64,000 nt of DNA from a virus. Taxonomy: Duplodnaviria; Caudoviricetes. The stretch covers positions 1 to 64,000 of IMG/VR virus record IMGVR_UViG_2974611114_000001. One strand, written 5' to 3'. Positions 561-52,426 of the stretch are shown in pieces (the first letter of the stretch is position 1; every line of letters starts with the position of its first letter). Position numbers and translations under genes: made by a program. The notes below the pieces were generated by a model. That model worked only from the letters and a program-made list of their open reading frames with translations. It had not been told where the DNA came from and searched no databases.

Positions 561-1907
561 ATGCAAGTATCAAGAGACTATGTTAACTGCGATAGATTGA
601 TAGACTTCCCACAGGAGGAAGCTTTCTTTAAACTACCTATCGCTAAATTCCTAGAAATGGAAGGGATAGTACCTAATAAACCACAGATAGCAATTCTTAA
701 TGCTCTTAATGATCCACGTCACCGTTTCGTGGTGGCTTGCGTCTCAAGACGCGTTGGTAAATCATTTATAGCATATAACAGTGCTTTCCTAAAACTAATG
801 GAACCAGGAACTATGGTTCTAGTGGTAGCACCAAACTACTCATTAGCAAACGTTGGCTGGAGAATTATCAAGCAATTAATTCGTAAGCATGGAATTAATA
901 CAGCTAAAGAGAATGCTAAGGATAATGAGATAGAACTGGACTTTGGACCAGGTGTTCCTGGTAGTATGCTTAAGATTGCCTCTGCAAATAACGCTGACTC
1001 TGCTGTTGGTCGCTCATATGATTTAATAGTATTCGATGAGGCTGCGATATCACCGAAGGGCGGAGACGCATTTGAGGTGCAACTTCAGCCGACCCTGGAT
1101 AAAGCTAACTCTAAAGCTCTATTTATATCAACACCACGTGGACACAACTGGTTTAAGAGGTTCTACGACTATGGATTCCAGATGGCTGGAGAAGGCAACC
1201 CTCTAGCGGGTAGATGGGTTAGTATACATGCTACTTATAGAGATAATCCTAGGGTAGATCTGTCTACTATTGAAGATGCTAGAAACAAAGTATCTAAGCA
1301 ATACTTCAGACAGGAGTATGAGGCTGACTTTGAAGTATTTGAAGGGCAAATATTTAGTGAGTTTGATTCCAGACTGCACGTGGTCGATCTTAAAGGTATG
1401 CGCCATTTCTTTGATAACAAAGATGACTTCGAGAGAATTTTTGGTATTGATATTGGTTTCCGTGATCCTACTGCAATCCTTACTATTTATTACCACTATG
1501 ATCAAGATATATTTTATGTTTTGAACGAGTATCAGCACGCTAATAAGACCACTGCTGAGCACGCTCAGTATATTCTGTGGTTAATGGAAAAGCACGATCC
1601 TGACTATATATTTGTAGATGCTGCGGCAGCACAATTCCGTCATGATATTAGCTTTGATTACGATATACCAAGTAGTCCTGCTAAGAAGTCAGTCAACGAT
1701 GGTCTAGCCTATTTGCAGAACCTATTCCATCAAGGCAAGATAATTGTCGATGCTAGTTGTACAAGTCTTATTAAGGCACTGACGGATTATAAGTGGAAGA
1801 TGGATGATGATGGCGTGCTTTCCAAGGAACGCCCTGTACATGATGATAGCTCCCACTTATGTGATGCTTTACGTTATGGTATATACAGTATTTCTAGAAA
1901 TATTTAA
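561..1907 (+). CDS. terL: terminase large subunit
   Basis: Walker A-like SRRVGKS, Walker B DLIVFDEAA, coupling motif ISTPRG, nuclease GIDIG and HLCDALRY; T5-type N-terminus MQVSRDY. Confidence 0.95.
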   Translation: MQVSRDYVNCDRLIDFPQEEAFFKLPIAKFLEMEGIVPNKPQIAILNALNDPRHRFVVACVSRRVGKSFIAYNSAFLKLMEPGTMVLVVAPNYSLANVGWRIIKQLIRKHGINTAKENAKDNEIELDFGPGVPGSMLKIASANNADSAVGRSYDLIVFDEAAISPKGGDAFEVQLQPTLDKANSKALFISTPRGHNWFKRFYDYGFQMAGEGNPLAGRWVSIHATYRDNPRVDLSTIEDARNKVSKQYFRQEYEADFEVFEGQIFSEFDSRLHVVDLKGMRHFFDNKDDFERIFGIDIGFRDPTAILTIYYHYDQDIFYVLNEYQHANKTTAEHAQYILWLMEKHDPDYIFVDAAAAQFRHDISFDYDIPSSPAKKSVNDGLAYLQNLFHQGKIIVDASCTSLIKALTDYKWKMDDDGVLSKERPVHDDSSHLCDALRYGIYSISRNI

Positions 1908-1916
1908 GGAGTAATA

Positions 1917-3977
1917 ATGGCATTTTATGCAAAGGGAGGGACAAACGCGTTCCTACATATAACTAAAGGTACGGATGCTAGGGGAGGGGTTAATGATGGT
2001 ACTATATTCCACTCCAGTATGCCCCATGTATTTATAGAGAAGAGTTGGGAGGCTAGTTTTAGACCTATAAAAACTGACTTCTCTAAGGCTTATTGGAACT
2101 ATGCTATTTGGTACTATGGTAATCAGCCCGGTGAGGGGTTTAATAAGCCAAACTCTACATTTAAGGATGCCTGGAACTCTGGTAGAGTAGCTAGTATACC
2201 AAAAGATTTACAGAATGAATTAGCTAATAAGTCCAATGTCATAGTAATAGAATTGGTGTATGAGCTAGGGGGTATAGAATATTCTTTCCTAGTGAATGGA
2301 TTATCAATTGGAAATACCAGCTGGCTATCTCCCAATAGAGACCAGTCATCTGGTTACCATAATTACGCAGTATCTGCTAATTCTACTAACGTTAACTGCA
2401 TTGCAGGTGGTATTGGTATAACCTACGGTAGTTTTGTAAACACCAATACTAATGATGATATCTTTGGTATGGCACGACTAGATTCGTTTGGTACTAGTAA
2501 TATAAACATAGTTACCCAAGTTCGGGATTCCTACCTTACAGGCTCGGATAAGTGGTACCATAGGGATATTATAAATGCCTGGTCTACTGTTATGCTATAC
2601 TCTAATAAGTGGGATCCTGAGATAACCTACCATAAGACGGATTTAGGTAAATTAGTCCCTACTCCAATCAGTCCTTACGGGCATGCTCATGATACTGCTT
2701 TCTCTACGCCAGTAGCTCCGGATATGGGGTACTGTAGAGTAATGGGGCCCAATCATAGAATATGGAGATTTATGGACGCGTACTCAACTCCCCCTATGTA
2801 TGATGATTATGATAATGGTGGTCCGTCTATAACTATAGAAAGTGGTACTCCGCAAAATAATTGGGGGTTTGGTACAGGAAGGACAGTAAGAGGAAGCCTA
2901 TTTGATGCTGGAGTAGATGAAAAGACATCAGAAAAGGGGGCTTATGTTAGATATTTAATATATAAAGGTACTCCCAAGAAGGTTCGGTGGTATAAGTTAA
3001 ATTTATCCTTTTCTATAGACAGCGGATATAATGTACGTACTAATGCGTTTAATACTACTAACTCTAAGGGTGTGCGAATAGGTTCAGGAAAGATGGAAGT
3101 TAATGGAGTATCTTTTCTAGGGGGCAGCAATAAGAGATTTATATTTCAGACCAACCCGTCAGGTGCCGCAACTAGGCAGGTACAAAGTCTAGTATTCTCA
3201 AACCATAGCTATACTGATGCAGGTAGGGCTAGTACAGAAAAAGGGTATATGCTGAAGCAGTCCGGAGTATCCCAAAGTTATAAAGTAGCAGATCTAGGGG
3301 GCACTAGTAGTCCAAGCGGAAATTCTGTATTATCTATATGTGATCTATCTAAAGGTACCGGATGGGGCTGCAACAGTACCTCTATATTTAATAGTAATGG
3401 AGAGTTGTGGGGCCCTAACAATATTCCGCTTACTATACGTGAAAATGCCACAGTAACCAAGAAATTTGGTGGGGCTAAGGGCCCTCTAGATATGAAAGAT
3501 AAGACTGCTACTATATCCCATGGTACATTAGCCCTTGGTTTAAGTAGATCTAGAGACACTACTATAATTTTTAATATAACATCTTCTGACCCGGTTATTC
3601 TATTTACATCTCCAGGTTATTACAGCTTAGGAATGTCTGAGAGCGTGGATCAACATATACAATTAGTTAATGATAAGGGACTCTCAGTAAGTTCACCACA
3701 TGGAATAGTTACACTCCCTATAGGAAGGTCTGTACCTATAGTAGCTAATAATGGACTATCTACCAACCTATTTGAGAATTATGATAGGGGATCAGGCAGA
3801 GAACGCCTATTCTCTGATTGCCACCACGACTCAGTAGTATGGTTGAAGAATCTAGGTAACGGTAATGTAGAGATAGTATCTACCCATACTCAACGTAGGG
3901 GTAGATTTGCGGATTGGGGAAACCTACCTGTATACGCTATCCCTGAATTTACATTACATGTAACTAAATTATCATAA
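1917..3977 (+). CDS. receptor-binding protein (T5 pb5-like)
   Basis: N-terminal TIFHSSMPHV and C-terminal PEFTLHVTKLS resemble the conserved ends of T5 pb5; similar size; Gly/Ser/Asn-rich beta composition. Confidence 0.8.
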   Translation: MAFYAKGGTNAFLHITKGTDARGGVNDGTIFHSSMPHVFIEKSWEASFRPIKTDFSKAYWNYAIWYYGNQPGEGFNKPNSTFKDAWNSGRVASIPKDLQNELANKSNVIVIELVYELGGIEYSFLVNGLSIGNTSWLSPNRDQSSGYHNYAVSANSTNVNCIAGGIGITYGSFVNTNTNDDIFGMARLDSFGTSNINIVTQVRDSYLTGSDKWYHRDIINAWSTVMLYSNKWDPEITYHKTDLGKLVPTPISPYGHAHDTAFSTPVAPDMGYCRVMGPNHRIWRFMDAYSTPPMYDDYDNGGPSITIESGTPQNNWGFGTGRTVRGSLFDAGVDEKTSEKGAYVRYLIYKGTPKKVRWYKLNLSFSIDSGYNVRTNAFNTTNSKGVRIGSGKMEVNGVSFLGGSNKRFIFQTNPSGAATRQVQSLVFSNHSYTDAGRASTEKGYMLKQSGVSQSYKVADLGGTSSPSGNSVLSICDLSKGTGWGCNSTSIFNSNGELWGPNNIPLTIRENATVTKKFGGAKGPLDMKDKTATISHGTLALGLSRSRDTTIIFNITSSDPVILFTSPGYYSLGMSESVDQHIQLVNDKGLSVSSPHGIVTLPIGRSVPIVANNGLSTNLFENYDRGSGRERLFSDCHHDSVVWLKNLGNGNVEIVSTHTQRRGRFADWGNLPVYAIPEFTLHVTKLS

Positions 3978-4041
3978 AACTATTTTTACGTATATTTAAC
4001 TAACTAAGCAGAGTTTCATATCCTCGAAATATAAACTCTGC

Positions 4042-4070
4042 TTTACATTTTTTTCAAGATGATGTATAAT
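4042..4070 (+). promoter_or_regulatory. sigma70-type promoter for the head operon
   Basis: TTTACA-17-TATAAT; preceded by an 11-bp inverted repeat AAGCAGAGTTT/AAACTCTGCTT. Confidence 0.7.
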
Positions 4071-4097
4071 ATTTATATCAAGTGAGGAAAACAACTC

Positions 4098-4634
4098 ATG
4101 GCAACAAATAATAAATACAAACGGGATGCGACTAGAGCAATAAGAGACGGTATAAAGTCCAATTATCGAAAAGATCCCGAATGTAAGATCTGTGGTACTG
4201 TAGAAGACTTAGAGCTTCACCACTACCATACGGTGTCCATACTGGTAGAAAACTTTGCCAGAGCAAATCGCTTAGATTTCAATAATGAAGAAGTAGTCCT
4301 AGCTAATAGGACGGCATTCTATGAACAATATTGGCATGAGCTAGTAGAGGACACCGTTACCCTTTGTGCAGACCATCACCAAAAACTACATAAGGTCTAC
4401 ACGAAAAAACCACCACTGTTCACAGTAGAAAAACAAAAGAACTGGGTGGAAATCCAACGAACCAAATATATAAATGGAGGAGAAGACAAAGAGCTTCCCC
4501 CAATTAATAGTCACTGCATCGAACCCAGTGGCGCAACAGCTACAAAGTCTTCGAACCGCTTTGATGCTGAAACAACTAAAAATACAAACTTTCTCGACTT
4601 TAGGGTTGAGACAAGAACGAGGTTTCTGATATAA
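4098..4634 (+). CDS. HNH-type nicking endonuclease
   Basis: CKICG...LELHH...TLCADHH zinc/HNH motifs; located before the portal gene as in T5. Confidence 0.8.
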   Translation: MATNNKYKRDATRAIRDGIKSNYRKDPECKICGTVEDLELHHYHTVSILVENFARANRLDFNNEEVVLANRTAFYEQYWHELVEDTVTLCADHHQKLHKVYTKKPPLFTVEKQKNWVEIQRTKYINGGEDKELPPINSHCIEPSGATATKSSNRFDAETTKNTNFLDFRVETRTRFLI

Positions 4635-5905
4635 TGGGAATATTGACAGACGTAAAGGCAGGACTTTCCTCACTAAGAAGGAAATCCAACGCCCCAGGTC
4701 AACGTATAATCAGAAGCGTAGAGGGAAATAGCTCAAAGACACTTACTAATGCTGTTACAGCTACCAAAGCTTATAGGAACGTTCCTATTATGAATAGAGT
4801 AGCGAACATGCTTATAGATAGTGCAGCTCAATGTAAGTATGATGTTGAGAAATTTGCTACCAGAAATAACTATATAAGCTATGGTTCAGGTATGCAAATG
4901 GAATCTTTGTCAAAACTACTCAATGTAAGACCGAACCCTTACATGGATGTAGATACTTTCAGACGTCTAGTGATTACGGATCTTATATTTAATGGATGTG
5001 CATATATTCGTTTTGATCCTGAATCAAAGTCGTTGTACCCTCTTCCTGCAGCCCTTATGACAGTGGTTGCCTCTGAAACTGAATATGTAGACCATTTTGT
5101 ATTAAGTGGTACGGTTAAGATACCTGTAGATCAGATTATATTCATTAAGGATAATGCTATCTTTAATGGTTATACCTCTCAGATTAGCGGACAAAGTCGT
5201 GCTCAGTCAGCTCTAGATTCCCTATCTAAAAGGGAACAAATGCTGGGATTTAAGGAGAAGTATCTAAATAATGGTACTGTTATTGGTCTTATATTGGAGA
5301 CGGAAGATATCCTTAACAAGAAGCAACGAGAAAGAAAAGAAGAAGAATTGCAATTAAACTATAATCCTCAGACTGGTAATGCCTCAGTATTAATTCTGGA
5401 CGCCGGTATGAAAGCTAAACCATATTCGCAAATCTCTTCCTTTAAAGATCTAGACTTTGGAGCTGATATCGCCCGTCAAGAAAAAGACGTATGTATAGCA
5501 TTAGGTGTGCCATACATCTTAATTGATGGTGGTAATAATGCAAATATTCGTCCTAATATAGAACTTCTATACTACATGACTATTATACCTATGCTAACAA
5601 AAGTAGCAAGTGCACTTTCGTTTTTCTTTGGGTATAATATAACTCCTTCATTAGATGGTGTTAAAGCCTTGAAGCTTGACATGGATAATGAGGCTAAGAG
5701 AGTAACATCTCTAGTTAACAACGGTATCATTACAGGTAATGAAGCCAGACTCGAGTTAGGTATGGAAAAACTTGAAGACGAACAAATGGAAACCATACGT
5801 ATACCTGCAAATATCGCTGGATCGGCTACAGGAGTATCCGGTCAAGAAGGCGGTCGTCCAGCAGGTCAGACGGACAATGATGAGGAGGAAAAGTCTAATG
5901 TATAA
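4634..5905 (+). CDS. portal protein (pb7-like)
   Basis: HK97-type portal motifs (LLNVRPNPYM, GIITGNEARLELG); synteny. Confidence 0.93.
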   Translation: MGILTDVKAGLSSLRRKSNAPGQRIIRSVEGNSSKTLTNAVTATKAYRNVPIMNRVANMLIDSAAQCKYDVEKFATRNNYISYGSGMQMESLSKLLNVRPNPYMDVDTFRRLVITDLIFNGCAYIRFDPESKSLYPLPAALMTVVASETEYVDHFVLSGTVKIPVDQIIFIKDNAIFNGYTSQISGQSRAQSALDSLSKREQMLGFKEKYLNNGTVIGLILETEDILNKKQRERKEEELQLNYNPQTGNASVLILDAGMKAKPYSQISSFKDLDFGADIARQEKDVCIALGVPYILIDGGNNANIRPNIELLYYMTIIPMLTKVASALSFFFGYNITPSLDGVKALKLDMDNEAKRVTSLVNNGIITGNEARLELGMEKLEDEQMETIRIPANIAGSATGVSGQEGGRPAGQTDNDEEEKSNV

Positions 5906-12834: not shown

Positions 12835-13212
12835 ATGACAGTAGAAGCATGGGAGCAGATGAAACAGATGTTTCTAGATAGTGGAAGACCTCCTCCTCCT
12901 GAAGACTCTAGACCTATAGAGTTTGAGTCTTTAGATACAGAATGCAAATTAGCATTTATGATATTTAATAGGTTAAGAGACACTTACGTTCCTGGGCAGA
13001 TGCCACAGTATAATGGTAAGGATTTATCGGGGTTACCAGTCTTATTTGAGATATATGGTATAACTGATAATGTAGAAAAAGAAGAAATATTAAACCTAAT
13101 AACTATCCTTGATGGGGCAGCTGTTAAAACATCAGCAGATTCCATTAAGAAAGCAATAAAACGTAGTTCATCAAAGACAGGGGTAGGAAATGTACCTACT
13201 GTTCCAAAATGA
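12835..13212 (+). CDS. tail assembly chaperone second ORF (T-like; probably expressed as a frameshift fusion)
   Basis: Reading frame is open from 12736 and overlaps the end of the G ORF in the +1 frame. Confidence 0.7.
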   Translation: MTVEAWEQMKQMFLDSGRPPPPEDSRPIEFESLDTECKLAFMIFNRLRDTYVPGQMPQYNGKDLSGLPVLFEIYGITDNVEKEEILNLITILDGAAVKTSADSIKKAIKRSSSKTGVGNVPTVPK

Positions 13213-31578: not shown

Positions 31579-31606
31579 TTATTAAATCTCTCAACTCAAT
31601 ACATAT

Positions 31607-31731
31607 ATTATACTAAAGTTTTTGGAAATCTGCAAATAAAATTTTTAATTAACTGACTCAACTTCACTTGCAGATTCTTTCTTTCCTCAACTTTATGTAA
31701 TTATTATATCAAACATCTTGTTCTTTGGCAA
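31607..31731 (-). promoter_or_regulatory. tandem sigma70-type promoters
   Basis: TTGCCA-17-TATAAT (31731-31703) and TTGCAG-17-TATAAT (31635-31607). Confidence 0.75.
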
Positions 31732-41399: not shown

Positions 41400-41424
41400 T
41401 TCCTCTTTCCGACTTTATGTAAAT

Positions 41425-41547
41425 ATTATATCAATAATTTTGGTACTTAGCAAGTAAAAATTTAAGTAACTTGCTAAGAGCCTACTCAATAAACCTTTCG
41501 TTTCCGAACAATATAACTATTATACATAAAATCTATGTGTACGTCAA
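41425..41547 (-). promoter_or_regulatory. tandem sigma70-type promoters upstream of ligase B
   Basis: TTGACG-17-TATAAT (41547-41519) and TTGCTA-17-TATAAT (41453-41425). Confidence 0.78.
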
Positions 41548-45985: not shown

Positions 45986-46206
45986 ATAGAATTTTCATGT
46001 ATTTCCGATAGTTCTTTATACCGCTTCTCTAGAACTAATGTTATCATCTTCTGCAATCTGACTGTTCTTCTATGCTCTAACCAAGATATGGGGTCAGGTA
46101 GTAACATCAAGGCTGGTGGAACGACCCTACAGATAGGTCGTTCATCTCTTTCCTCGACGTATTTCTTGGCTGGTGGCTTAGCATATACTTTCTTCCATCT
46201 ACCCAT
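45958..46206 (-). CDS. hypothetical protein
   Basis: Overlaps the obp stop; synteny with T5-like phages. Confidence 0.6.
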   Translation of the reverse strand: MGRWKKVYAKPPAKKYVEERDERPICRVVPPALMLLPDPISWLEHRRTVRLQKMITLVLEKRYKELSEIHENSICKDPYKVI

Positions 46207-48976
46207 CTCCAAGCTCCAAATCAGCAATACCCTCATAGTACTTCTGCTTCTCTTCGATAGTCATAAATGCTACAGGTAACTGGATACCTTCTATTCTGCA
46301 GTACGTTCTGTACCAGTCTACAATATTAGTAGTATCCATATCTTTACCGATACCCATCATTGTTAAGTACATTCTAGCATATTTAGGAGATGCACTATTA
46401 CCAGTTCTAATAAAGAATTCCCTTTTATGGGATTTCATAGCCTCTACGAATGGGACTATTGTCTTTTCAGAACACCTAGTAATTGGCTCCCAGAAAATGT
46501 CTTGAACCTTATGGAAGAACCCAGCTCGTTCGTGTGGCTTTTCAGTAACGTATTGTTCTACTAATTCTCTGGTTAGCTCATTGATGTTGTCCAACTTATA
46601 GTACTGTAATAGTAACATCTTTTCAGAATACGCATCATTATGTCGTAATGGTGTGTAATCAGGAGTAGAAGACATAATAGCATCCACACGTTGATTAAAG
46701 TACTCAGTACTAGCGCTCTCTATACCTCCCCAGCTTTCCGTAAATATATCAATAGTTGCACCTTGATCTAATAAATAGAATCTTAACGTTGATTGATAGT
46801 TTTTACTCTCTATCTCCCTACGTCTGGCGTATAGCTGTTGACTTCTATCAATCCATCCCTCATCAGCATTATATTGCTCAGAACCTGCAACAAATCCAGC
46901 AACACCAGGATTAGTATACATATAGATTGACATTGCACCACGATCTCGCCTGATAGCTTGCATTCTCATGTTTGGTGAGTGATTGGCTGTATTAGTTATT
47001 ACAAATACGTTATCAAAGTAATTAAAGTCAACACCACTAGTTACCGATGGACTACATAATAGGGCATCAATCCCCTGATCAATTAACTCTTGGTTAGTTA
47101 AATCTAGGATTCTTCTAATATCGGGATCCTCTGTAGATGAGGAGTGGACTTCTTTAACATTCGCCCCTGTTGCCGCTCGTAGGGCTATGCCCTTTTCGGC
47201 TAACTGGGCGGGACCGGAGTCTGATACTAATATTGACTTCTCACCCATCTCTAGAGATGTTTGCAGAGCTGTCCATATAGACTTTTCGTCAGGAAACTCA
47301 TATACTTGAGCACCCTCCAGCATTCTTCTATGGTGATTGTAATAATAAATAGGTTTGGCGAAGCCAATTAGAGCACCATAAGCCTCAATCGTTTCTGCAC
47401 TAATATCACCATCCGATAGAACAACATAGTCTGCTGCCAGTAGTAGTTCTCGTAACGTTTCGATGCATGCCCTACGTTGCTTTACGACCGGCGCAAATAA
47501 TAGGTCATTCATAACAGCGTCTGCTTCATCAATAAACACGAAGTTAACTCTATCGGTGAATGTTGCGAACTTATGTATGGAATGAATAGTAGTTGACATT
47601 CTATCAATACCACCACGTTTAAAGTTTAGCATGTCTGCCGTCTTACAATATTGACCTGCACCGAATTTAGCTGCGTTAGATGCTACCAGTGAACGGGTGT
47701 TCGTTACTGCTAGGAACCCCCCTTTAACTAACCCCTTATTAAGCCAATTAATAATTGCAGTTGTCTTACCAGTACCTAAAGATGCTTTAACGAATGTCAT
47801 ACTATTAGGTGGCGGGATTTCCCGAAGTTTTAAGTACTTTTCCGCCTCGTTGCTATCAGTTTTCAGGGCGTACAAAGGCACTCCCTTTAGATTACCTTCA
47901 GGGATTTTTCTAGCTGAATTGTTAACGAATGCTTTTAATGCTTGACGTCTACCATTATTAAAGTAATCTTGAACAGAACGTCTGTTATCTTTAGTACTTA
48001 CATACTCCTCAAGATATGGACGAATTTCTCTCTCTAGCCAAGCTAGATCAACGCCCTCTTCTAATGCTCTATGGTAGAGTTTAGGAATAATACGAAGATA
48101 TACACCATCTTCTGCTTCTTCAAGCTCTCTGATAGTATCCTCTATTTTTTCTGATGTAGATTTTTTTCCTTTAATAGAATCTAATAATGACAAAAATTCC
48201 TCTTTAAATTCACCACGAGTTGACTCATAGTCTGGTGCATTATGTGGAAGATTAATCTTCGAACCCTCAACACGCACCAATCTTGGAATTCTACGTTCTA
48301 GGAAAGGATCTACCATGCCATCCTCAAAGATAGGATCAGCGAAGTAATGTGGTTGTACTGCTGAATAGTACGCTAAGTCAATAAGGTCGGAACCATACTT
48401 TTGGCGTGACGATTCGTTGACAGTCGAAAATATAAACTTCAACTGCCCTTGTGTAACTGGAATATTGCTTTCTAGAATTAAGTGAATACGAATCCCTGGC
48501 TTTATGCCAGCAGAAGATGATGCATGAACAATAAAGCCTGCATCCAATGGAAACATATCCTCACTTATATTATTAAGCATCTTTATAGCAAACTTTGCTT
48601 GACCTACCAAATCGAAATGATCAATATCTTCAGGCAAGGGGAAGTCGTCCACGTCAATAGCTACTACATGGCTTCGCTCTGTTAAATCAAAGTTTACTCT
48701 ACGTCTATAAATAGCATTCTTAGAACCAGTACATTTACCGCGAACGGCTAATAGGTACGGATTCCTAGTGAGGGTGTGTAAAAGATCCTCCATCTCGACT
48801 AAGTCTTCTGGATATACCTCATCAACAACATTATACTGAATAGCCATAGATGCTGGCTTGCCTTCTGGATGTTCTTTATTGAATCGTTTACAGAATACTA
48901 AATCTGTATCCTTTTCATACTCACCAGTGGCTTTATTCAGACGATAGCCCTCATGTCCCTTTAAAATAGTGAACAT
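46199..48976 (-). CDS. replication origin-binding protein (UL9-like SF2 helicase with N-terminal primase-like domain)
   Basis: KASLGTGKT, FIDEADA, SPSVTSGVDF, QAIRR; N-terminal IDVD and SSS..GIRIH. Confidence 0.85.
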   Translation of the reverse strand: MFTILKGHEGYRLNKATGEYEKDTDLVFCKRFNKEHPEGKPASMAIQYNVVDEVYPEDLVEMEDLLHTLTRNPYLLAVRGKCTGSKNAIYRRRVNFDLTERSHVVAIDVDDFPLPEDIDHFDLVGQAKFAIKMLNNISEDMFPLDAGFIVHASSSAGIKPGIRIHLILESNIPVTQGQLKFIFSTVNESSRQKYGSDLIDLAYYSAVQPHYFADPIFEDGMVDPFLERRIPRLVRVEGSKINLPHNAPDYESTRGEFKEEFLSLLDSIKGKKSTSEKIEDTIRELEEAEDGVYLRIIPKLYHRALEEGVDLAWLEREIRPYLEEYVSTKDNRRSVQDYFNNGRRQALKAFVNNSARKIPEGNLKGVPLYALKTDSNEAEKYLKLREIPPPNSMTFVKASLGTGKTTAIINWLNKGLVKGGFLAVTNTRSLVASNAAKFGAGQYCKTADMLNFKRGGIDRMSTTIHSIHKFATFTDRVNFVFIDEADAVMNDLLFAPVVKQRRACIETLRELLLAADYVVLSDGDISAETIEAYGALIGFAKPIYYYNHHRRMLEGAQVYEFPDEKSIWTALQTSLEMGEKSILVSDSGPAQLAEKGIALRAATGANVKEVHSSSTEDPDIRRILDLTNQELIDQGIDALLCSPSVTSGVDFNYFDNVFVITNTANHSPNMRMQAIRRDRGAMSIYMYTNPGVAGFVAGSEQYNADEGWIDRSQQLYARRREIESKNYQSTLRFYLLDQGATIDIFTESWGGIESASTEYFNQRVDAIMSSTPDYTPLRHNDAYSEKMLLLQYYKLDNINELTRELVEQYVTEKPHERAGFFHKVQDIFWEPITRCSEKTIVPFVEAMKSHKREFFIRTGNSASPKYARMYLTMMGIGKDMDTTNIVDWYRTYCRIEGIQLPVAFMTIEEKQKYYEGIADLELGDG

Positions 48977-49012
48977 GCTACTATAACTCCTTTGTTATAA
49001 ATTTTAGATACA

Positions 49013-49042
49013 ATTATACTATATAGAATTACCACTTGTCAA
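49013..49042 (-). promoter_or_regulatory. promoter for the origin-binding protein gene
   Basis: TTGACA-18-TATAAT. Confidence 0.7.
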
Positions 49043-49049
49043 TTGCATT

Positions 49050-49738
49050 TTTCACGGCTAAGGCTTCCGGTGGCACAAGTGCTCGGGTTCCCCTTATCTT
49101 ACTCCTGCAACTTCTAGTTAATAATAAACAGATTCCATAACTACCTCTTACGCCATTGTGCTAGGGAGAGTGTTCCACGTAAGCCCCATCGTTGCATCGA
49201 TTCTTTAAGTTTCATTATGTTCACTGCTAGTACAGACGTTTTCTCAAAATAGAGAATTACTCCGAAGCTATAAACTTATATCACCATTCATTGTATTACT
49301 TCAAAACCATAATGCGGCAAGGTTACGAATGCTAACAGCCAGTTGAATCATAATAACCGCCCCACGATATCAGATAACCCGCTAAGGCATACGTGGCTCG
49401 GGACCCCTTTCCTCCGAGGAGGCATTAAGCGCCGTAGTTACTAAGTTCAATATCCGACTTTTTTCAGGCTCGAGGCAGTAGGGCATACATCTCTGATTAA
49501 GGCATCGAATGCCATATGTACCGCACGCGGGATCACACCGCACCTACTCTGTTAGCTTTGAATTGTCATAATACGAATAATGTTACAGGTTCATAGTCAT
49601 CGGAGACAAAAGTCTCCGACTAAGGCAGAAATCTACCTCAATATAATAAGAGACCCAACGAACCGTACTCTATCGAGTATCTCTAAGGGCACTCTAGGAA
49701 TACCCTTAGAGATCGGGGATCCCTCCCCTCACTCGATA
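49050..49738 (-). ncRNA. putative large structured non-coding RNA / replication-origin element
   Basis: No ORF of 60 aa or more; begins right after a perfect promoter; many helices including long-range ones; internal repeated module. Confidence 0.55.
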
Positions 49739-49743
49739 TAAAT

Positions 49744-49772
49744 ATTATATCAAATATTTAAAAATTTGTCAA
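49744..49772 (-). promoter_or_regulatory. perfect sigma70 promoter firing into the ORF-free structured region
   Basis: TTGACA-17-TATAAT with extended -10 TG. Confidence 0.85.
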
Positions 49773-49796
49773 GAATACTTTATAAAATCGCATCGA

Positions 49797-50435
49797 CTAA
49801 CGGCGTACAACACGTAATGTACCGATTAGACCATTATCAATAGCAAACCCAAGAATCTCATCCAACGTCGAATCTTTAAGCTCAACATGGAATGCACTAG
49901 AATTTGCGCTACTGATGCAAATACCTACCATTTCTTTATAGAGATCAGAATCCTCCCCGTAAGTCTCCGATACATAATCAAGGGCATTCAAAAGCACTTC
50001 ATTTTTAAAACGTCGCATTGCTGGGCAATCTTCATTAGTAAGACCCGCTAATAGGTTACGACCAACAATGTTTAAGAGATTTTCATCTCCTAGCACTTCG
50101 CTAGTGTCGCATTCAACAATGTTACGTAAGGAAAAGTCAATAGATGCCTCATCGTATGCAAGTATATGACCAGTACATGCAAAAATTAACGAGTTGATAA
50201 CCCTAAACCCTGGAGTTAATATCATCTCTACCAGCATATTTGCTAGAATACCGTCCGCCACAAACATACTTTCTGTTAAAGTCTTAGATACTCTAGGGGT
50301 AAATAGCATTGGGTATTCTTTATGGATGCATTTGAGCACGTAAAGCAGATCTACTTTACCAATCCCTGCATCAATCCAGTTGCCATCAGCAACATAACCC
50401 ATCTGTACACTATCAATAATCTTTACTAAGTACAT
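49797..50435 (-). CDS. hypothetical protein
   Basis: 212-aa ORF with GAGG RBS and own promoter. Confidence 0.7.
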   Translation of the reverse strand: MYLVKIIDSVQMGYVADGNWIDAGIGKVDLLYVLKCIHKEYPMLFTPRVSKTLTESMFVADGILANMLVEMILTPGFRVINSLIFACTGHILAYDEASIDFSLRNIVECDTSEVLGDENLLNIVGRNLLAGLTNEDCPAMRRFKNEVLLNALDYVSETYGEDSDLYKEMVGICISSANSSAFHVELKDSTLDEILGFAIDNGLIGTLRVVRR

Positions 50436-50506: not shown

Positions 50507-52372
50507 TTACTGGATCTTACCGCTACGCACATCTGCATGCTTAACCCTACCCATAACCTCATGTTGCTTACCTGGGTTAAATGGTCTAGCACCTGGGTTA
50601 CCTAAGTATCCACATACCCTTCGTGTAATTTCAAGAGTGTTAGTATCGTGGTTACCACAAGCTGGGCATTCAAACCCATTCTCACTGGCTATGGCTTCGC
50701 CAATAAAACCACATTCACTACAGGTGTCAACAGGAGTATTAATACCAAAGTAATGAACCTTACTAGCAGCATAGTCAATTACCCACTCTAAAGCATCTAA
50801 GAATCGCTTCATATCTGGTAACTCTACATAAGCAATGCAACCACCACTAGCAATAGAAGTAAAGTTAGATTCATAATCAAATTTGACATCAGGAGCCACC
50901 TTTCTAGCAACATCTAAATGATGCGAGTTAGTATAGTAACCTTTCTCGAATAGCCAAGAATACTCAGGAAATTTATTAGCATCCAACTGGTTGAAACGAT
51001 TACATAATGACTCACTAGGAGTTGCATACAAACTGAAGCCAATACCTGTATTAGCCTTTTCAATATCACACGCCTCACGTATGTATAAAAGAACTTGCTT
51101 AACGAATTCGATACATTCAGAGCTCATAGTATCTACATTTTTACCGAACATTGCTTGCAACATCTCATGGCAACCAATATAACCTACGGAAATGGATGCA
51201 CGATCCTTAAAATGGTCAAATACTAAGTCCTTTGCATTCAGTCGCATACCAAAAGCCCCTGACATGTATAAGATAGGAGCAGCTTCTGCTCTTACTTTCT
51301 TAAGGTGATCCATTCTCCAATAGCATGCATTAATAGCCAGTTCTACCCGCTCTTCTAAAATGTCGAAGAAAGTATCAACATCTCCTTCTGACTCAATAGC
51401 GATTCTAGGTAGGTTTATGCTAACAACACCTAAATTATTACGACCTGCTGTCTCACCATCTTTATTGGCAGCTAAGAAACTTCTACAACCCATACTTACT
51501 TTATAGTCACCAGTAACTTCAACAACCTTATCATATGATATGTAGTCAGGATACATGCGTTCACTAGTACATTTAATAGCTAGCTTCTTAATATCGTAGT
51601 TAGGGTCACCGGGTTTCATATTAAGTCCAGGTTTAAGTACATATACTAATTTGGGAAATATAGCAGTATGTTTACCATTCCCTAATCCAGCCATTCTAGT
51701 ATTTAGGATAGCTTTCTGTATCATTCTAGCTTCCCAAGAAGTACCTAACCCAAATCCTAGAGTAACAAAAGGGCTTTGACCATTTGAGTTAAAGAGTGTA
51801 TTGATCTCATACTCCAAACTCTGCATAGCATCTTTAACTTCCTTCTCTACCATCTCAGTTGCCATTACAGCAGATTTAGCAACATCCCCTTTCAACCACT
51901 TCATTGCAAATGATAGCGCCTTATTATATGACGCCCTGACATACGGAGCATATATTTCATCAATTCTATCAATAGATGTTCCTCCATATTGGTGACTTGA
52001 CACCTGAGCTAAAATCTGTGCGGTCACAGCCACAGCTGTATCTAGAGACTTAGGAGTTGTAATATCAGCATTCCCTACTCGCATACCATCCCTTAGCATC
52101 CCTTCTAAATCTACCAAACAGCAATTAGTGTAGCCCATAGCAGAGTAGTCAGCGTCATGGAAGTGGATGTCTCCAGAGTTATGTGCTTCTAGGATATCTT
52201 CAGGTAGCATTTCTTCTAGTAATGCCTTACATACTTCACCCGCCAACATATCACGTTGAGTGGCTAGTCGTTCAGAAGGCTTATTAGCATTATTAAACCG
52301 TAAATCATCTTCCGCTGTGTTAGAGATTATATCTCTAGAGTTGTTCATCATACTTTTTAATTTTTCAGTCAT
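50507..52372 (-). CDS. nrdD: anaerobic ribonucleotide reductase (class III)
   Basis: IHFHD, TNCC, SMGCRS, TPSESLC, YYTNS, Zn site CSEC/CPAC, glycyl radical RRVCGYLG. Confidence 0.97.
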   Translation of the reverse strand: MTEKLKSMMNNSRDIISNTAEDDLRFNNANKPSERLATQRDMLAGEVCKALLEEMLPEDILEAHNSGDIHFHDADYSAMGYTNCCLVDLEGMLRDGMRVGNADITTPKSLDTAVAVTAQILAQVSSHQYGGTSIDRIDEIYAPYVRASYNKALSFAMKWLKGDVAKSAVMATEMVEKEVKDAMQSLEYEINTLFNSNGQSPFVTLGFGLGTSWEARMIQKAILNTRMAGLGNGKHTAIFPKLVYVLKPGLNMKPGDPNYDIKKLAIKCTSERMYPDYISYDKVVEVTGDYKVSMGCRSFLAANKDGETAGRNNLGVVSINLPRIAIESEGDVDTFFDILEERVELAINACYWRMDHLKKVRAEAAPILYMSGAFGMRLNAKDLVFDHFKDRASISVGYIGCHEMLQAMFGKNVDTMSSECIEFVKQVLLYIREACDIEKANTGIGFSLYATPSESLCNRFNQLDANKFPEYSWLFEKGYYTNSHHLDVARKVAPDVKFDYESNFTSIASGGCIAYVELPDMKRFLDALEWVIDYAASKVHYFGINTPVDTCSECGFIGEAIASENGFECPACGNHDTNTLEITRRVCGYLGNPGARPFNPGKQHEVMGRVKHADVRSGKIQ

Positions 52373-52397
52373 TGTTTCTCCTCCGATATATTGATAC

Positions 52398-52426
52398 ATT
52401 ATACCAAATCTGTACGTCTATGTCAA
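52398..52426 (-). promoter_or_regulatory. nrdD promoter
   Basis: TTGACA-17-TATAAT. Confidence 0.85.

Follow-up and report, generated by a model that had tools for sequence, protein, structure and literature searches.

A near-invariant, structured non-coding element upstream of the origin-binding protein gene of a T5-like Proteus phage, a candidate cis site for replication

Introduction

Promoter-driven replication origins have been described in several systems, including the ColE1 RNA II pre-primer, the T7 phi1.1A/B origins and the T4 origins oriF and oriG. In the lactococcal phage c2, an untranslated promoter-driven transcript (PE1-T) covers the phage origin, and the ssiA and ssiB sites of RSF1010 are hairpins of about 40 nt, recognised by the RepB' primase and read as DNA. 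Structured leaders can also serve gene expression, as with the T4 gene 43 and gene 32 proteins, which exert autogenous repression via their own leaders.

The D2 protein of phage T5 is a characterised bipolar helicase with a proposed role in initiation, but the initiation function of this 'origin-binding' helicase has only been inferred, and the T5 origins are internal and have not been mapped (PMC3632103).

Here we describe a non-coding element lying upstream of the D2 ortholog (obp, encoding OBP) in a T5-like Proteus phage of the genus Novosibvirus (Demerecviridae). The DNA analysed, hereafter the window, comprises the leftmost 64 kb of a virus record of 104,329 bp. Like ColE1 RNA II and the T7 and T4 origins, the element combines a constitutive promoter, a predicted untranslated transcript of several hundred nt with a folded 5' domain and a location near replication functions, and its structure is carried by the sense strand of the transcript; it differs from ColE1 RNA II in that no antisense RNA I-type promoter was found and that its initiator has a modelled AEP primase domain. 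With the RSF1010 ssi sites it shares a hairpin of conserved sequence beside an AEP-like primase gene and, in the window as a candidate feature, coupled specificity of protein and site, but the conserved unit of the window spans about 400 nt and includes long-range helices. PE1-T of phage c2, likened here by description only, is similar in being an untranslated promoter-driven transcript and belongs to an unrelated phage family. The element also recalls GOLLD, ROOL, OLE and HEARO in its size class and ornate fold, and some members of these families are phage-borne; these RNAs, however, are not tied to an initiator gene, and none of them matched the element in Rfam at E values up to 10. A literature search found no published description of the element or of its T5-like counterpart.

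Results

A single long ORF-free gap precedes obp and is headed by a consensus promoter

The genes surrounding the element all lie on the minus strand, in the order nrdD, a 212-aa ORF, the gap and obp, with one promoter at each end of the gap:

50507-52399, minus strand: nrdD
49797-50435, minus strand: ORF of 212 aa with no assigned function
49744..49772, minus strand: P1, a T5-type early promoter (TTGACA-17-TATAAT with a TG extension, score 12/12), predicted start near 49737
49013..49042, minus strand: P2, a second consensus promoter (TTGACA-18-TATAAT, 18-nt spacer, score 12/12), directly before obp
46199-48976, minus strand: obp, 925 aa, annotated 'replication origin binding protein', ortholog of T5 D2

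A first-pass annotation had singled out this region as the only large ORF-free gap, and a scan of the 64-kb window agreed: positions 48977-49796 (820 nt) form the sole stretch of at least 300 nt without an ORF of at least 55 aa, all ORFs within it being of 53 aa or less. The perfect sigma-70 promoter reported to fire into the gap (P1) and the separate promoter attributed to obp (P2) were both recovered. Over this region, 8 GenBank relatives showed 98.6-99.4% identity to the window, and annotators of GenBank entries had placed small hypothetical ORFs in the gap. None of the small ORFs inside the gap had a PHROG match, and the gap as a protein-coding gene or pseudogene was rejected, there being no open frame, homologs or third-position bias. 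The stretch 49045-49330 likewise gave no coding signal, with stops in all frames and variants that do not fall at third positions. In one relative (L049) a small gene cassette is inserted at the equivalent place, and no similarity to the 56-aa insert of that relative was detected.

Among six Novosibvirus genomes, the P1 region (49738-49796) had no variable site (0/59). A multi-lineage profile built on the T5-like promoter and RNA 5' end had its top-scoring window match at P1 (E 6e-4); the promoter signature is also common to other early promoters in the window. No intrinsic terminator was found between P1 and obp, no discrete 3' end of the P1 transcript could be located by sequence, and the interval 49045-49737 contained no promoter-like site on the plus strand of the kind expected for an RNA I-type antisense regulator. 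The element lies at 47% of the record (48.5% in T5), and no second copy was found elsewhere in the genome. ARAGORN predicted 0 tRNA or tmRNA genes in the window.

Strand-specific folding is limited to the 5' 407 nt

The region had been described as highly structured over approximately 700 nt. That extent did not survive the folding analysis: the structured unit covers about 400 nt (49737-49331), and the 286 nt on its 3' side fold worse than shuffled sequences. The features referred to below are as follows:

49331..49737, minus strand: structured, near-invariant core of about 407 nt (z -3.31; 4/407 sites variable)
49672..49737, minus strand: 5' three-way junction (inverted repeat I1), with a closing stem, a GGGGA/UCCCC hairpin and a 16-bp hairpin around AUCUCUAAGGG
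49599..49640, minus strand: adjacent hairpins UGAGGUAG/CUGCCUUA and GUCGGAGAC-UUUU-GUCUCCGAU, from predicted folds
49549..49556, minus strand: 5' strand of the long-range helix GCUAACAG/CUGUUAGC (inverted repeat I3, MFE fold)
49362..49396, minus strand: CUUAGCGG hairpin domain, with a 4-bp inner helix, a UAGC loop, a 6-nt 3' bulge and an 8-bp outer stem
49331..49338, minus strand: 3' strand of the long-range helix GCUAACAG/CUGUUAGC, at the end of the core
49045..49330, minus strand: unstructured, moderately conserved spacer from the core to P2 (z +1.83)

Folded as sense RNA, the core (407 nt) reached an MFE of -144.3 kcal/mol, a value that none of 100 shuffles equalled, as compared with a z of -1.53 for the antisense strand. 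G.U pairs accounted for 22 of the 124 pairs in the MFE structure, and the same sense strand evaluated with DNA folding parameters gave a z of -4.64. The positive z of the spacer was obtained for the entire 286-nt tail (49330-49045). Better-than-chance, strand-specific folding is limited to the 5' 407 nt, and the division of the gap into a folded 5' part and an unfolded 3' part is matched by GC content, which is 0.44-0.475 in the core against about 0.38 in the flanks, the 3' part of the gap being AT-richer.

All the local helices proposed in the first-pass annotation are in the sequence and in both the MFE and the centroid folds, namely the 5' three-way junction, GGGGA/UCCCC, the 11-bp AUCUCUAAGGG stem, the GUCGGAGAC hairpin, GGCAU/AUGCC and CCUC/GAGG; the junction is in the MFE and centroid structures of the RNA and DNA folds alike. 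The two distant pairings proposed alongside them fared less well. The helix GCUAACAG/CUGUUAGC exists in the sequence and in the folds, but taken alone it is no better than chance, since an 8-bp complement placed in this way arises in about 20% of shuffles (P 0.21, best-stem search). For the pseudoknot UAACUAC/GUAGUUA, the complementary sequences are there but the pairing received no support.

The core is nearly invariant within Novosibvirus

Variable-site fractions were calculated from an alignment of 6 Novosibvirus genomes covering 6.2 kb:

nrdD: 0.167 at all sites, 0.431 at third positions
212-aa ORF: 0.083
gap core, 49331-49737: 0.010 (4/407)
gap 3' part, 49045-49330: 0.052 (15/286)
obp: 0.115 at all sites; 0.036, 0.006 and 0.303 at codon positions 1, 2 and 3

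The core was 30-40 times less variable than third codon positions, and its difference from obp was highly significant (Fisher test, p 3e-15); the spacer (49045-49330) varied about 6 times less than third codon positions. These fractions indicated that nearly every position of the core is constrained, to a degree comparable to second codon positions. The 4 variants in the core were all structure-neutral, 3 of them falling in loops and the fourth, at 49626 in the hairpin region 49599..49640, turning a G.U pair into A-U. Several variants among relatives break predicted pairs in the 3' part of the gap. It should be considered that near-invariance could in principle reflect a recent recombinational sweep instead of selection; no OBP relatives at 66-99% identity were found.

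The low variability also bears on whether the gap is simply the remnant of a decayed gene or insertion, devoid of function. The small hypothetical ORFs of the GenBank entries and the cassette found at the equivalent place in L049 would suit such an origin, but a functionless remnant is hardly reconcilable with a core so far below third-codon-position variability, nor with the lack of coding signal and PHROG matches, and we regard it as extremely improbable.

T5-like phages carry a covariation-supported structured RNA before obp

We compared the obp neighbourhoods of 33 IMG/VR loci, T5 (L023) included, and those of further lineages represented by Sugarlandvirus, Pectobacterium phage My1, Erwinia phage KEY, two metagenomic lineages, three Vibrio lineages and one Aeromonas phage. 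Upstream of obp, most lineages have a gap of 430-890 nt that contains no credible ORF and is headed by a strong promoter whose spacer measures 17 nt. This arrangement of gap and promoter was seen in T5, Epseptimavirus-like phages, Sugarlandvirus, My1, Erwinia KEY, the two metagenomic lineages and the Vibrio phages. Two cases do not clearly fit this pattern: the Aeromonas phage, where an endonuclease gene abuts obp, and one locus (L028) having a divergent, AT-rich intergenic region of 368 nt in which no structured region was seen. The gene upstream of the gap varies by lineage. In T5, a terminator closes the preceding operon, and the GenBank annotation of the gap consists of a 'putative promoter' only.

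Among enterobacterial T5-likes the gap can be aligned, and RNAalifold produced a structure of 79 pairs in 12 helices, some of which span 215-430 nt. In this structure, 97.1% of the cells were paired, compared to 89.5% in shuffles, and 26 pairs were changed on both sides as opposed to 15.6 ± 1.7 in shuffles, a count that none of 500 shuffles attained; once the 3' partners were slid by 1-3 columns, changes on both sides fell to 1-7. Since the structure was derived from the same alignment, which comprises essentially three lineages, these figures reflect a modest number of independent events. About one fifth of the pairs are G.U, which places the structure on the strand that is transcribed towards obp. 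Within one type, the RNA showed 9-11% variable sites compared with 52-62% at obp third positions, evolving like first codon positions. These results indicated that T5-likes carry a covariation-supported structured RNA before obp.

The last hairpin of this RNA (helix 12) is conserved and encloses the Shine-Dalgarno sequence and the start codon of obp. Plain expression control would account equally well for a leader whose hairpin covers the ribosome-binding site. In T5, KEY and others, no second promoter turned up before obp, so that in these phages the RNA is the obp 5' leader. The element could accordingly be a structured leader acting solely on obp expression, whether by way of mRNA stability or processing or by OBP binding the leader and repressing its own synthesis. 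This is, in our estimation, unlikely on balance, although it deserves serious weight: the leader position of the RNA in T5, KEY and others and the helix 12 hairpin speak for it, and the co-segregation of RNA type and OBP N-terminus described below would also be expected of an autoregulatory pair. In the window phage, however, obp has P2 30 nt ahead of it and is set apart from the core by 286 unstructured nt, from which we conclude that obp is expressible there without the leader; moreover, known operators measure tens of nucleotides, as opposed to 400 nt constrained almost throughout.

A hairpin motif and its geometry link the window element to the T5-type RNA

The window element and the T5-like D2 leader RNA share the position between a T5-type early promoter and obp, a non-coding nature and strong purifying selection. 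They also share the CUUAGCGG hairpin with its 3' bulge and outer stem, and a helix that encloses it from about 165 nt before to about 48 nt after. They differ in having no detectable similarity beyond the promoter and the 8-mer, and the window element further departs from the T5-like leader in its three-way-junction 5' domain, its extra 286-nt spacer, its second promoter and a far lower variation within the lineage.

The CUUAGCGG 8-mer occurs once in the 64 kb, both strands counted, at 49386..49379 (minus strand), and one copy was found in each obp-upstream gap of T5, L004-type loci, Sugarlandvirus, L049, My1 and Erwinia KEY. In most lineages it is laid out as an inner helix of 3-4 bp, a UAGC loop, a 3' bulge of 4-10 nt and an outer stem whose sequence varies by lineage; in My1 the region folds differently. 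The second inner pair of the hairpin is C-G in the window and G-C in T5. The motif is located 357 nt from the -10 box in the window, the distance being 304-361 nt across lineages. When the local fold was compared with shuffles, a P of 0.048 was obtained for the window and, by Fisher combination, about 0.01 for 7 lineages. In addition, the GCUAACAG/CUGUUAGC helix begins 170 nt before the CUUAGCGG motif and finishes 48 nt after it, and helix 4 of the T5-like structure, which is supported by covariation, begins about 162-163 nt before the motif and finishes about 48 nt (T5) or about 46 nt (L004-type) after it. By simple arithmetic, the chance of finding the exact 8-mer on the right strand within the 58-nt range of distances from the -10 box (304-361 nt) is about 1 in 1000, and for this reason we deem the core probably homologous to the T5-type RNA, on the strength of one 8-mer and its geometry.

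Searches of the region against syntenic loci by blastn and nhmmer, and of two T5-like nhmmer profiles against the window, matched at the promoter and 5' end only. Covariance models of the CUUAGCGG hairpin, R1 (T5-type) and R2 (T5-type plus L004-type), found no match in the window with filters off. R2 also missed the hairpins of My1, KEY and Sugarlandvirus, lineages that are certainly homologous, so the silence of these models says little. Across lineages, MAFFT misplaced the variable bulge of the hairpin. A profile match at 13096-13121 was discarded as due to chance, as it lies inside a plus-strand ORF, and a pairwise alignment of the window core with L049 was not convincing.

The first-pass annotation had proposed an undescribed large ncRNA at this place. 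No match at gathering score was obtained with Rfam in the 64 kb; in the region itself, raising the E threshold to 10 gave chance-level matches only (E above 1), and the T5 counterpart had no match either. Covariance models of GOLLD, ROOL, OLE, HEARO, group I/II introns and riboswitches were among those without a match. Conservation, strand-specific folding, the T5-like locus, the CUUAGCGG hairpin and the absence of an Rfam match give the proposal good, if indirect, support; the unit is of about 400 nt and not 700. That annotation also offered, as the alternative, a possible ColE1 RNA II-like primer or R-loop origin, for which neither an antisense promoter nor a terminator was found.

In T5-like phages the RNA and the N-terminal part of OBP are inherited together

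Residues 1-250 of OBP, to which a primase-like domain had been ascribed, do model as an AEP prim-pol fold (pLDDT of the N-terminal model, 82.9). Structural matches of this part included human PrimPol (Z 7.0 over 162 residues), HSV UL52 and poxvirus D5/E5 (Z about 6) and the RepB' primase (Z 5.0); these Z values are middling, and nearly all matching rows belong to the AEP family. The residues of the DxD and H motifs (Asp108, Asp110 and His165) are invariant. The helicase part matched PF02399 at residues 391-536, as well as HSV OBP structures (E 7e-4). As modelled, OBP is an AEP primase-like N-terminal domain joined to a UL9-like SF2 helicase.

To assess inheritance, 28 T5-like loci were grouped by the type of their RNA interior. 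The ratio of between-group to within-group distance was about 2.5 from the RNA interior to around nucleotide 1700 of obp and 1.0 beyond; upstream of the RNA interior, including the 150 nt just before it, between-group and within-group distances were equal. These ratios define a one-sided co-segregating block consisting of the RNA interior and the first ~570 codons of obp. Recombination concentrated in the 5' part of the RNA, which is identical, could have sharpened the upstream edge of this block. In T5-likes, the RNA element is inherited as if it formed a single module with the N-terminal two-thirds of OBP.

This module is relevant to a further explanation, in which the element would be a free-standing trans-acting ncRNA, acting for instance by sequestering or guiding a factor of the host or the phage, and lying beside obp by happenstance. 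A consensus promoter of its own, a compact closed fold from +1 and very high conservation are what such an RNA would display, and its size and setting recall large phage RNAs without assigned function. We nonetheless hold it improbable, given that no terminator or defined 3' end was found, that linkage to obp is kept across lineages despite differing upstream neighbours, that the interior co-segregates with obp, and that neither GOLLD, ROOL, OLE, HEARO nor any other Rfam family matched.

On the sense strand of the element, GCCUUA occurs in 4 copies against 0.17 expected (P 3e-5). The repeat might be a binding motif; it is not shared by T5-likes, where one CTTAG was found. Four copies of GCCTTA in the same orientation, an AT-richer 3' part and a position adjoining the initiator gene are also the attributes of an ordinary duplex DNA origin made up of binding sites plus an unwinding element, in which folding would be irrelevant, and the good fold of the same strand under DNA parameters (z -4.64) agrees with this. 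An origin of this kind seems quite improbable to us, since in T5-likes the long-range helices are kept via compensatory changes and are strand-specific, with about one fifth of G.U pairs, and the GCCTTA repeat is not common to these phages.

Discussion

In the reading that we favour, to which we give slightly less than even weight, the element would serve OBP as its cis-acting site, either as a replication origin or as the activator of one; in this most likely reading the element is not a free trans-acting RNA. Host RNA polymerase would start at P1, near 49737 on the minus strand, and transcribe the compact core of about 407 nt to 49331 and then the unstructured 286-nt spacer, running on past P2 into obp with no terminator on the route. 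The folded transcript, or the displaced DNA strand of the same sense, would carry recognition hairpins for OBP; under DNA parameters the latter, too, folds unusually well (z -4.64). It is the inheritance of the element and the OBP N-terminus as a module that leads us to regard the folded transcript or displaced strand as the cis site of OBP. We infer that the transcript is produced, that OBP binds it and that it has a role in replication.

Several observations touch on the origin reading. Linkage to obp, one-sided co-segregation, constraint at every position, the mid-genome location and the GCCUUA repeat agree with it, as does the fact that P2 allows the window phage to express obp independently of the element. 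A point against it is that an initiator equipped with a primase domain needs no RNA primer; the AEP primase domain of OBP favours the origin reading and, to the same extent, makes an RNA primer less necessary. In a recombitron study, the strand bias of T5 suggested dominant unidirectional replication from one genome end (PMC10055335), which fits poorly with a central origin.

A more specific form of the preferred reading, which we put forward as rather doubtful, is that of a transcription-activated, structure-specified origin whose hairpins, above all CUUAGCGG, the AEP-primase domain of OBP would read as a signal for single-strand initiation. Transcription from P1 would open the duplex, exposing the hairpins as RNA or as single-stranded DNA of the same sense.

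Whatever its role, the element is a large structured RNA candidate missing from Rfam, and it probably represents a divergent branch of an RNA family shared by T5-like phages and absent from that database. GenBank currently fills such gaps with spurious small ORFs, in a phage family that is much used in therapy (Proteus, Salmonella, Klebsiella and E. coli phages). In the classic model phage T5, the replication origin has never been mapped to sequence, and a 400-nt non-coding unit under second-codon-like constraint and tied to the initiator gene offers a concrete, mutable candidate site. If the proposal is true, this structure-specified origin would be the long-sought primary origin of T5-like phages, served by an initiator that combines a primase with an SF2 helicase.

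OBP and the leader RNA

The product of obp (OBP, the candidate replication initiator orthologous to T5 D2) gave a Pfam match restricted to its helicase part, and none in its N-terminal domain. The predicted model of residues 1-250 matched PrimPol, HSV UL52 and poxvirus D5/E5 structurally with Z 6-7. This domain also has invariant residues at its DxD and H motifs. Because residues 1-250 both model and align as an AEP and these motif residues do not vary, OBP is predicted to be a fusion of a primase with a UL9-like SF2 helicase. In the T5-like loci L004-L035, the leader RNA (the structured element upstream of obp) has either a T5-type or an L004-type interior, and this interior and the first ~1700 nt of obp have differentiated jointly, with no differentiation upstream of this block or past ~1700 nt of obp. 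The RNA interior and the front of obp are thus a one-sided haplotype block.

OBP domain and co-differentiated block
Gene 46199-48976, minus strand: N-terminal domain, residues 1-250, predicted AEP primase-polymerase fold
Locus positions about 3600-5700, T5-like loci L004-L035: co-differentiated block

Composition and surroundings of the element

Within the window element, GCCUUA occurs four times in a single orientation (0.17 expected), two of the four copies lying in a duplicated module, AAGGGG..CCCGAGC..GCCUUAGC; T5-like phages are without the GCCUUA repeat. P1, the promoter heading the element, has its extended -10 box and the motif at the start of its transcript in common with other early promoters of the window: in each, TATAAT leads into an A/T-rich stretch, which is followed by a run of purines. 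Immediately 5' of P1 lies a 212-aa ORF (49797-50435, minus strand) with no match in Pfam or PHROG; T5 relatives carry other genes in its place. In GenBank records MH830339 and ON529533 the element is annotated with three or four short CDSs (33-53 aa), each labelled 'hypothetical protein'; they are unsupported and should probably be removed.

Features of the element, and promoters resembling P1
First bases 49626, 49503, 49388 and 49064, minus strand: GCCUUA copies
49410-49381 and 49095-49057: duplicated module
31585-31617 (minus), 4064-4090 (plus) and 41406-41434 (minus): early promoters resembling P1
49036-49741: region equivalent to the part of MH830339/ON529533 annotated with the small CDSs

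Distant relatives and the RNA-obp junction

A strong promoter also precedes obp in Vibrio Demerecviridae lineages, and in two of these lineages it overlaps a hairpin resembling a terminator. From promoter to obp these lineages have 600-700 nt of GC-richer, ORF-poor sequence with several GNRA-type loops; the CUUAGCGG hairpin motif, common to the window element and six T5-like lineages, is absent from these Vibrio lineages (L039, L040, L057-L060). The distant Demerecviridae-like contig L028 has a short, AT-rich region before obp, with no structured element seen; the contig carries a group I intron (1246-1543, minus strand; Rfam RF00028, 95 bits).

Vibrio obp-upstream regions
L039, 750-1414
L040, 770-1500
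L057-L060, about 840-1500

An insertion at 1350-1600 of the metagenomic T5-like contig L049 places a gene encoding 56 aa, together with a promoter of its own, between leader RNA and obp. A 21-nt junction sequence is duplicated on the flanks of this gene. The RNA-obp junction therefore tolerates cassette insertion, and such an event may have been the source of the window's spacer and of P2, the promoter next to obp.
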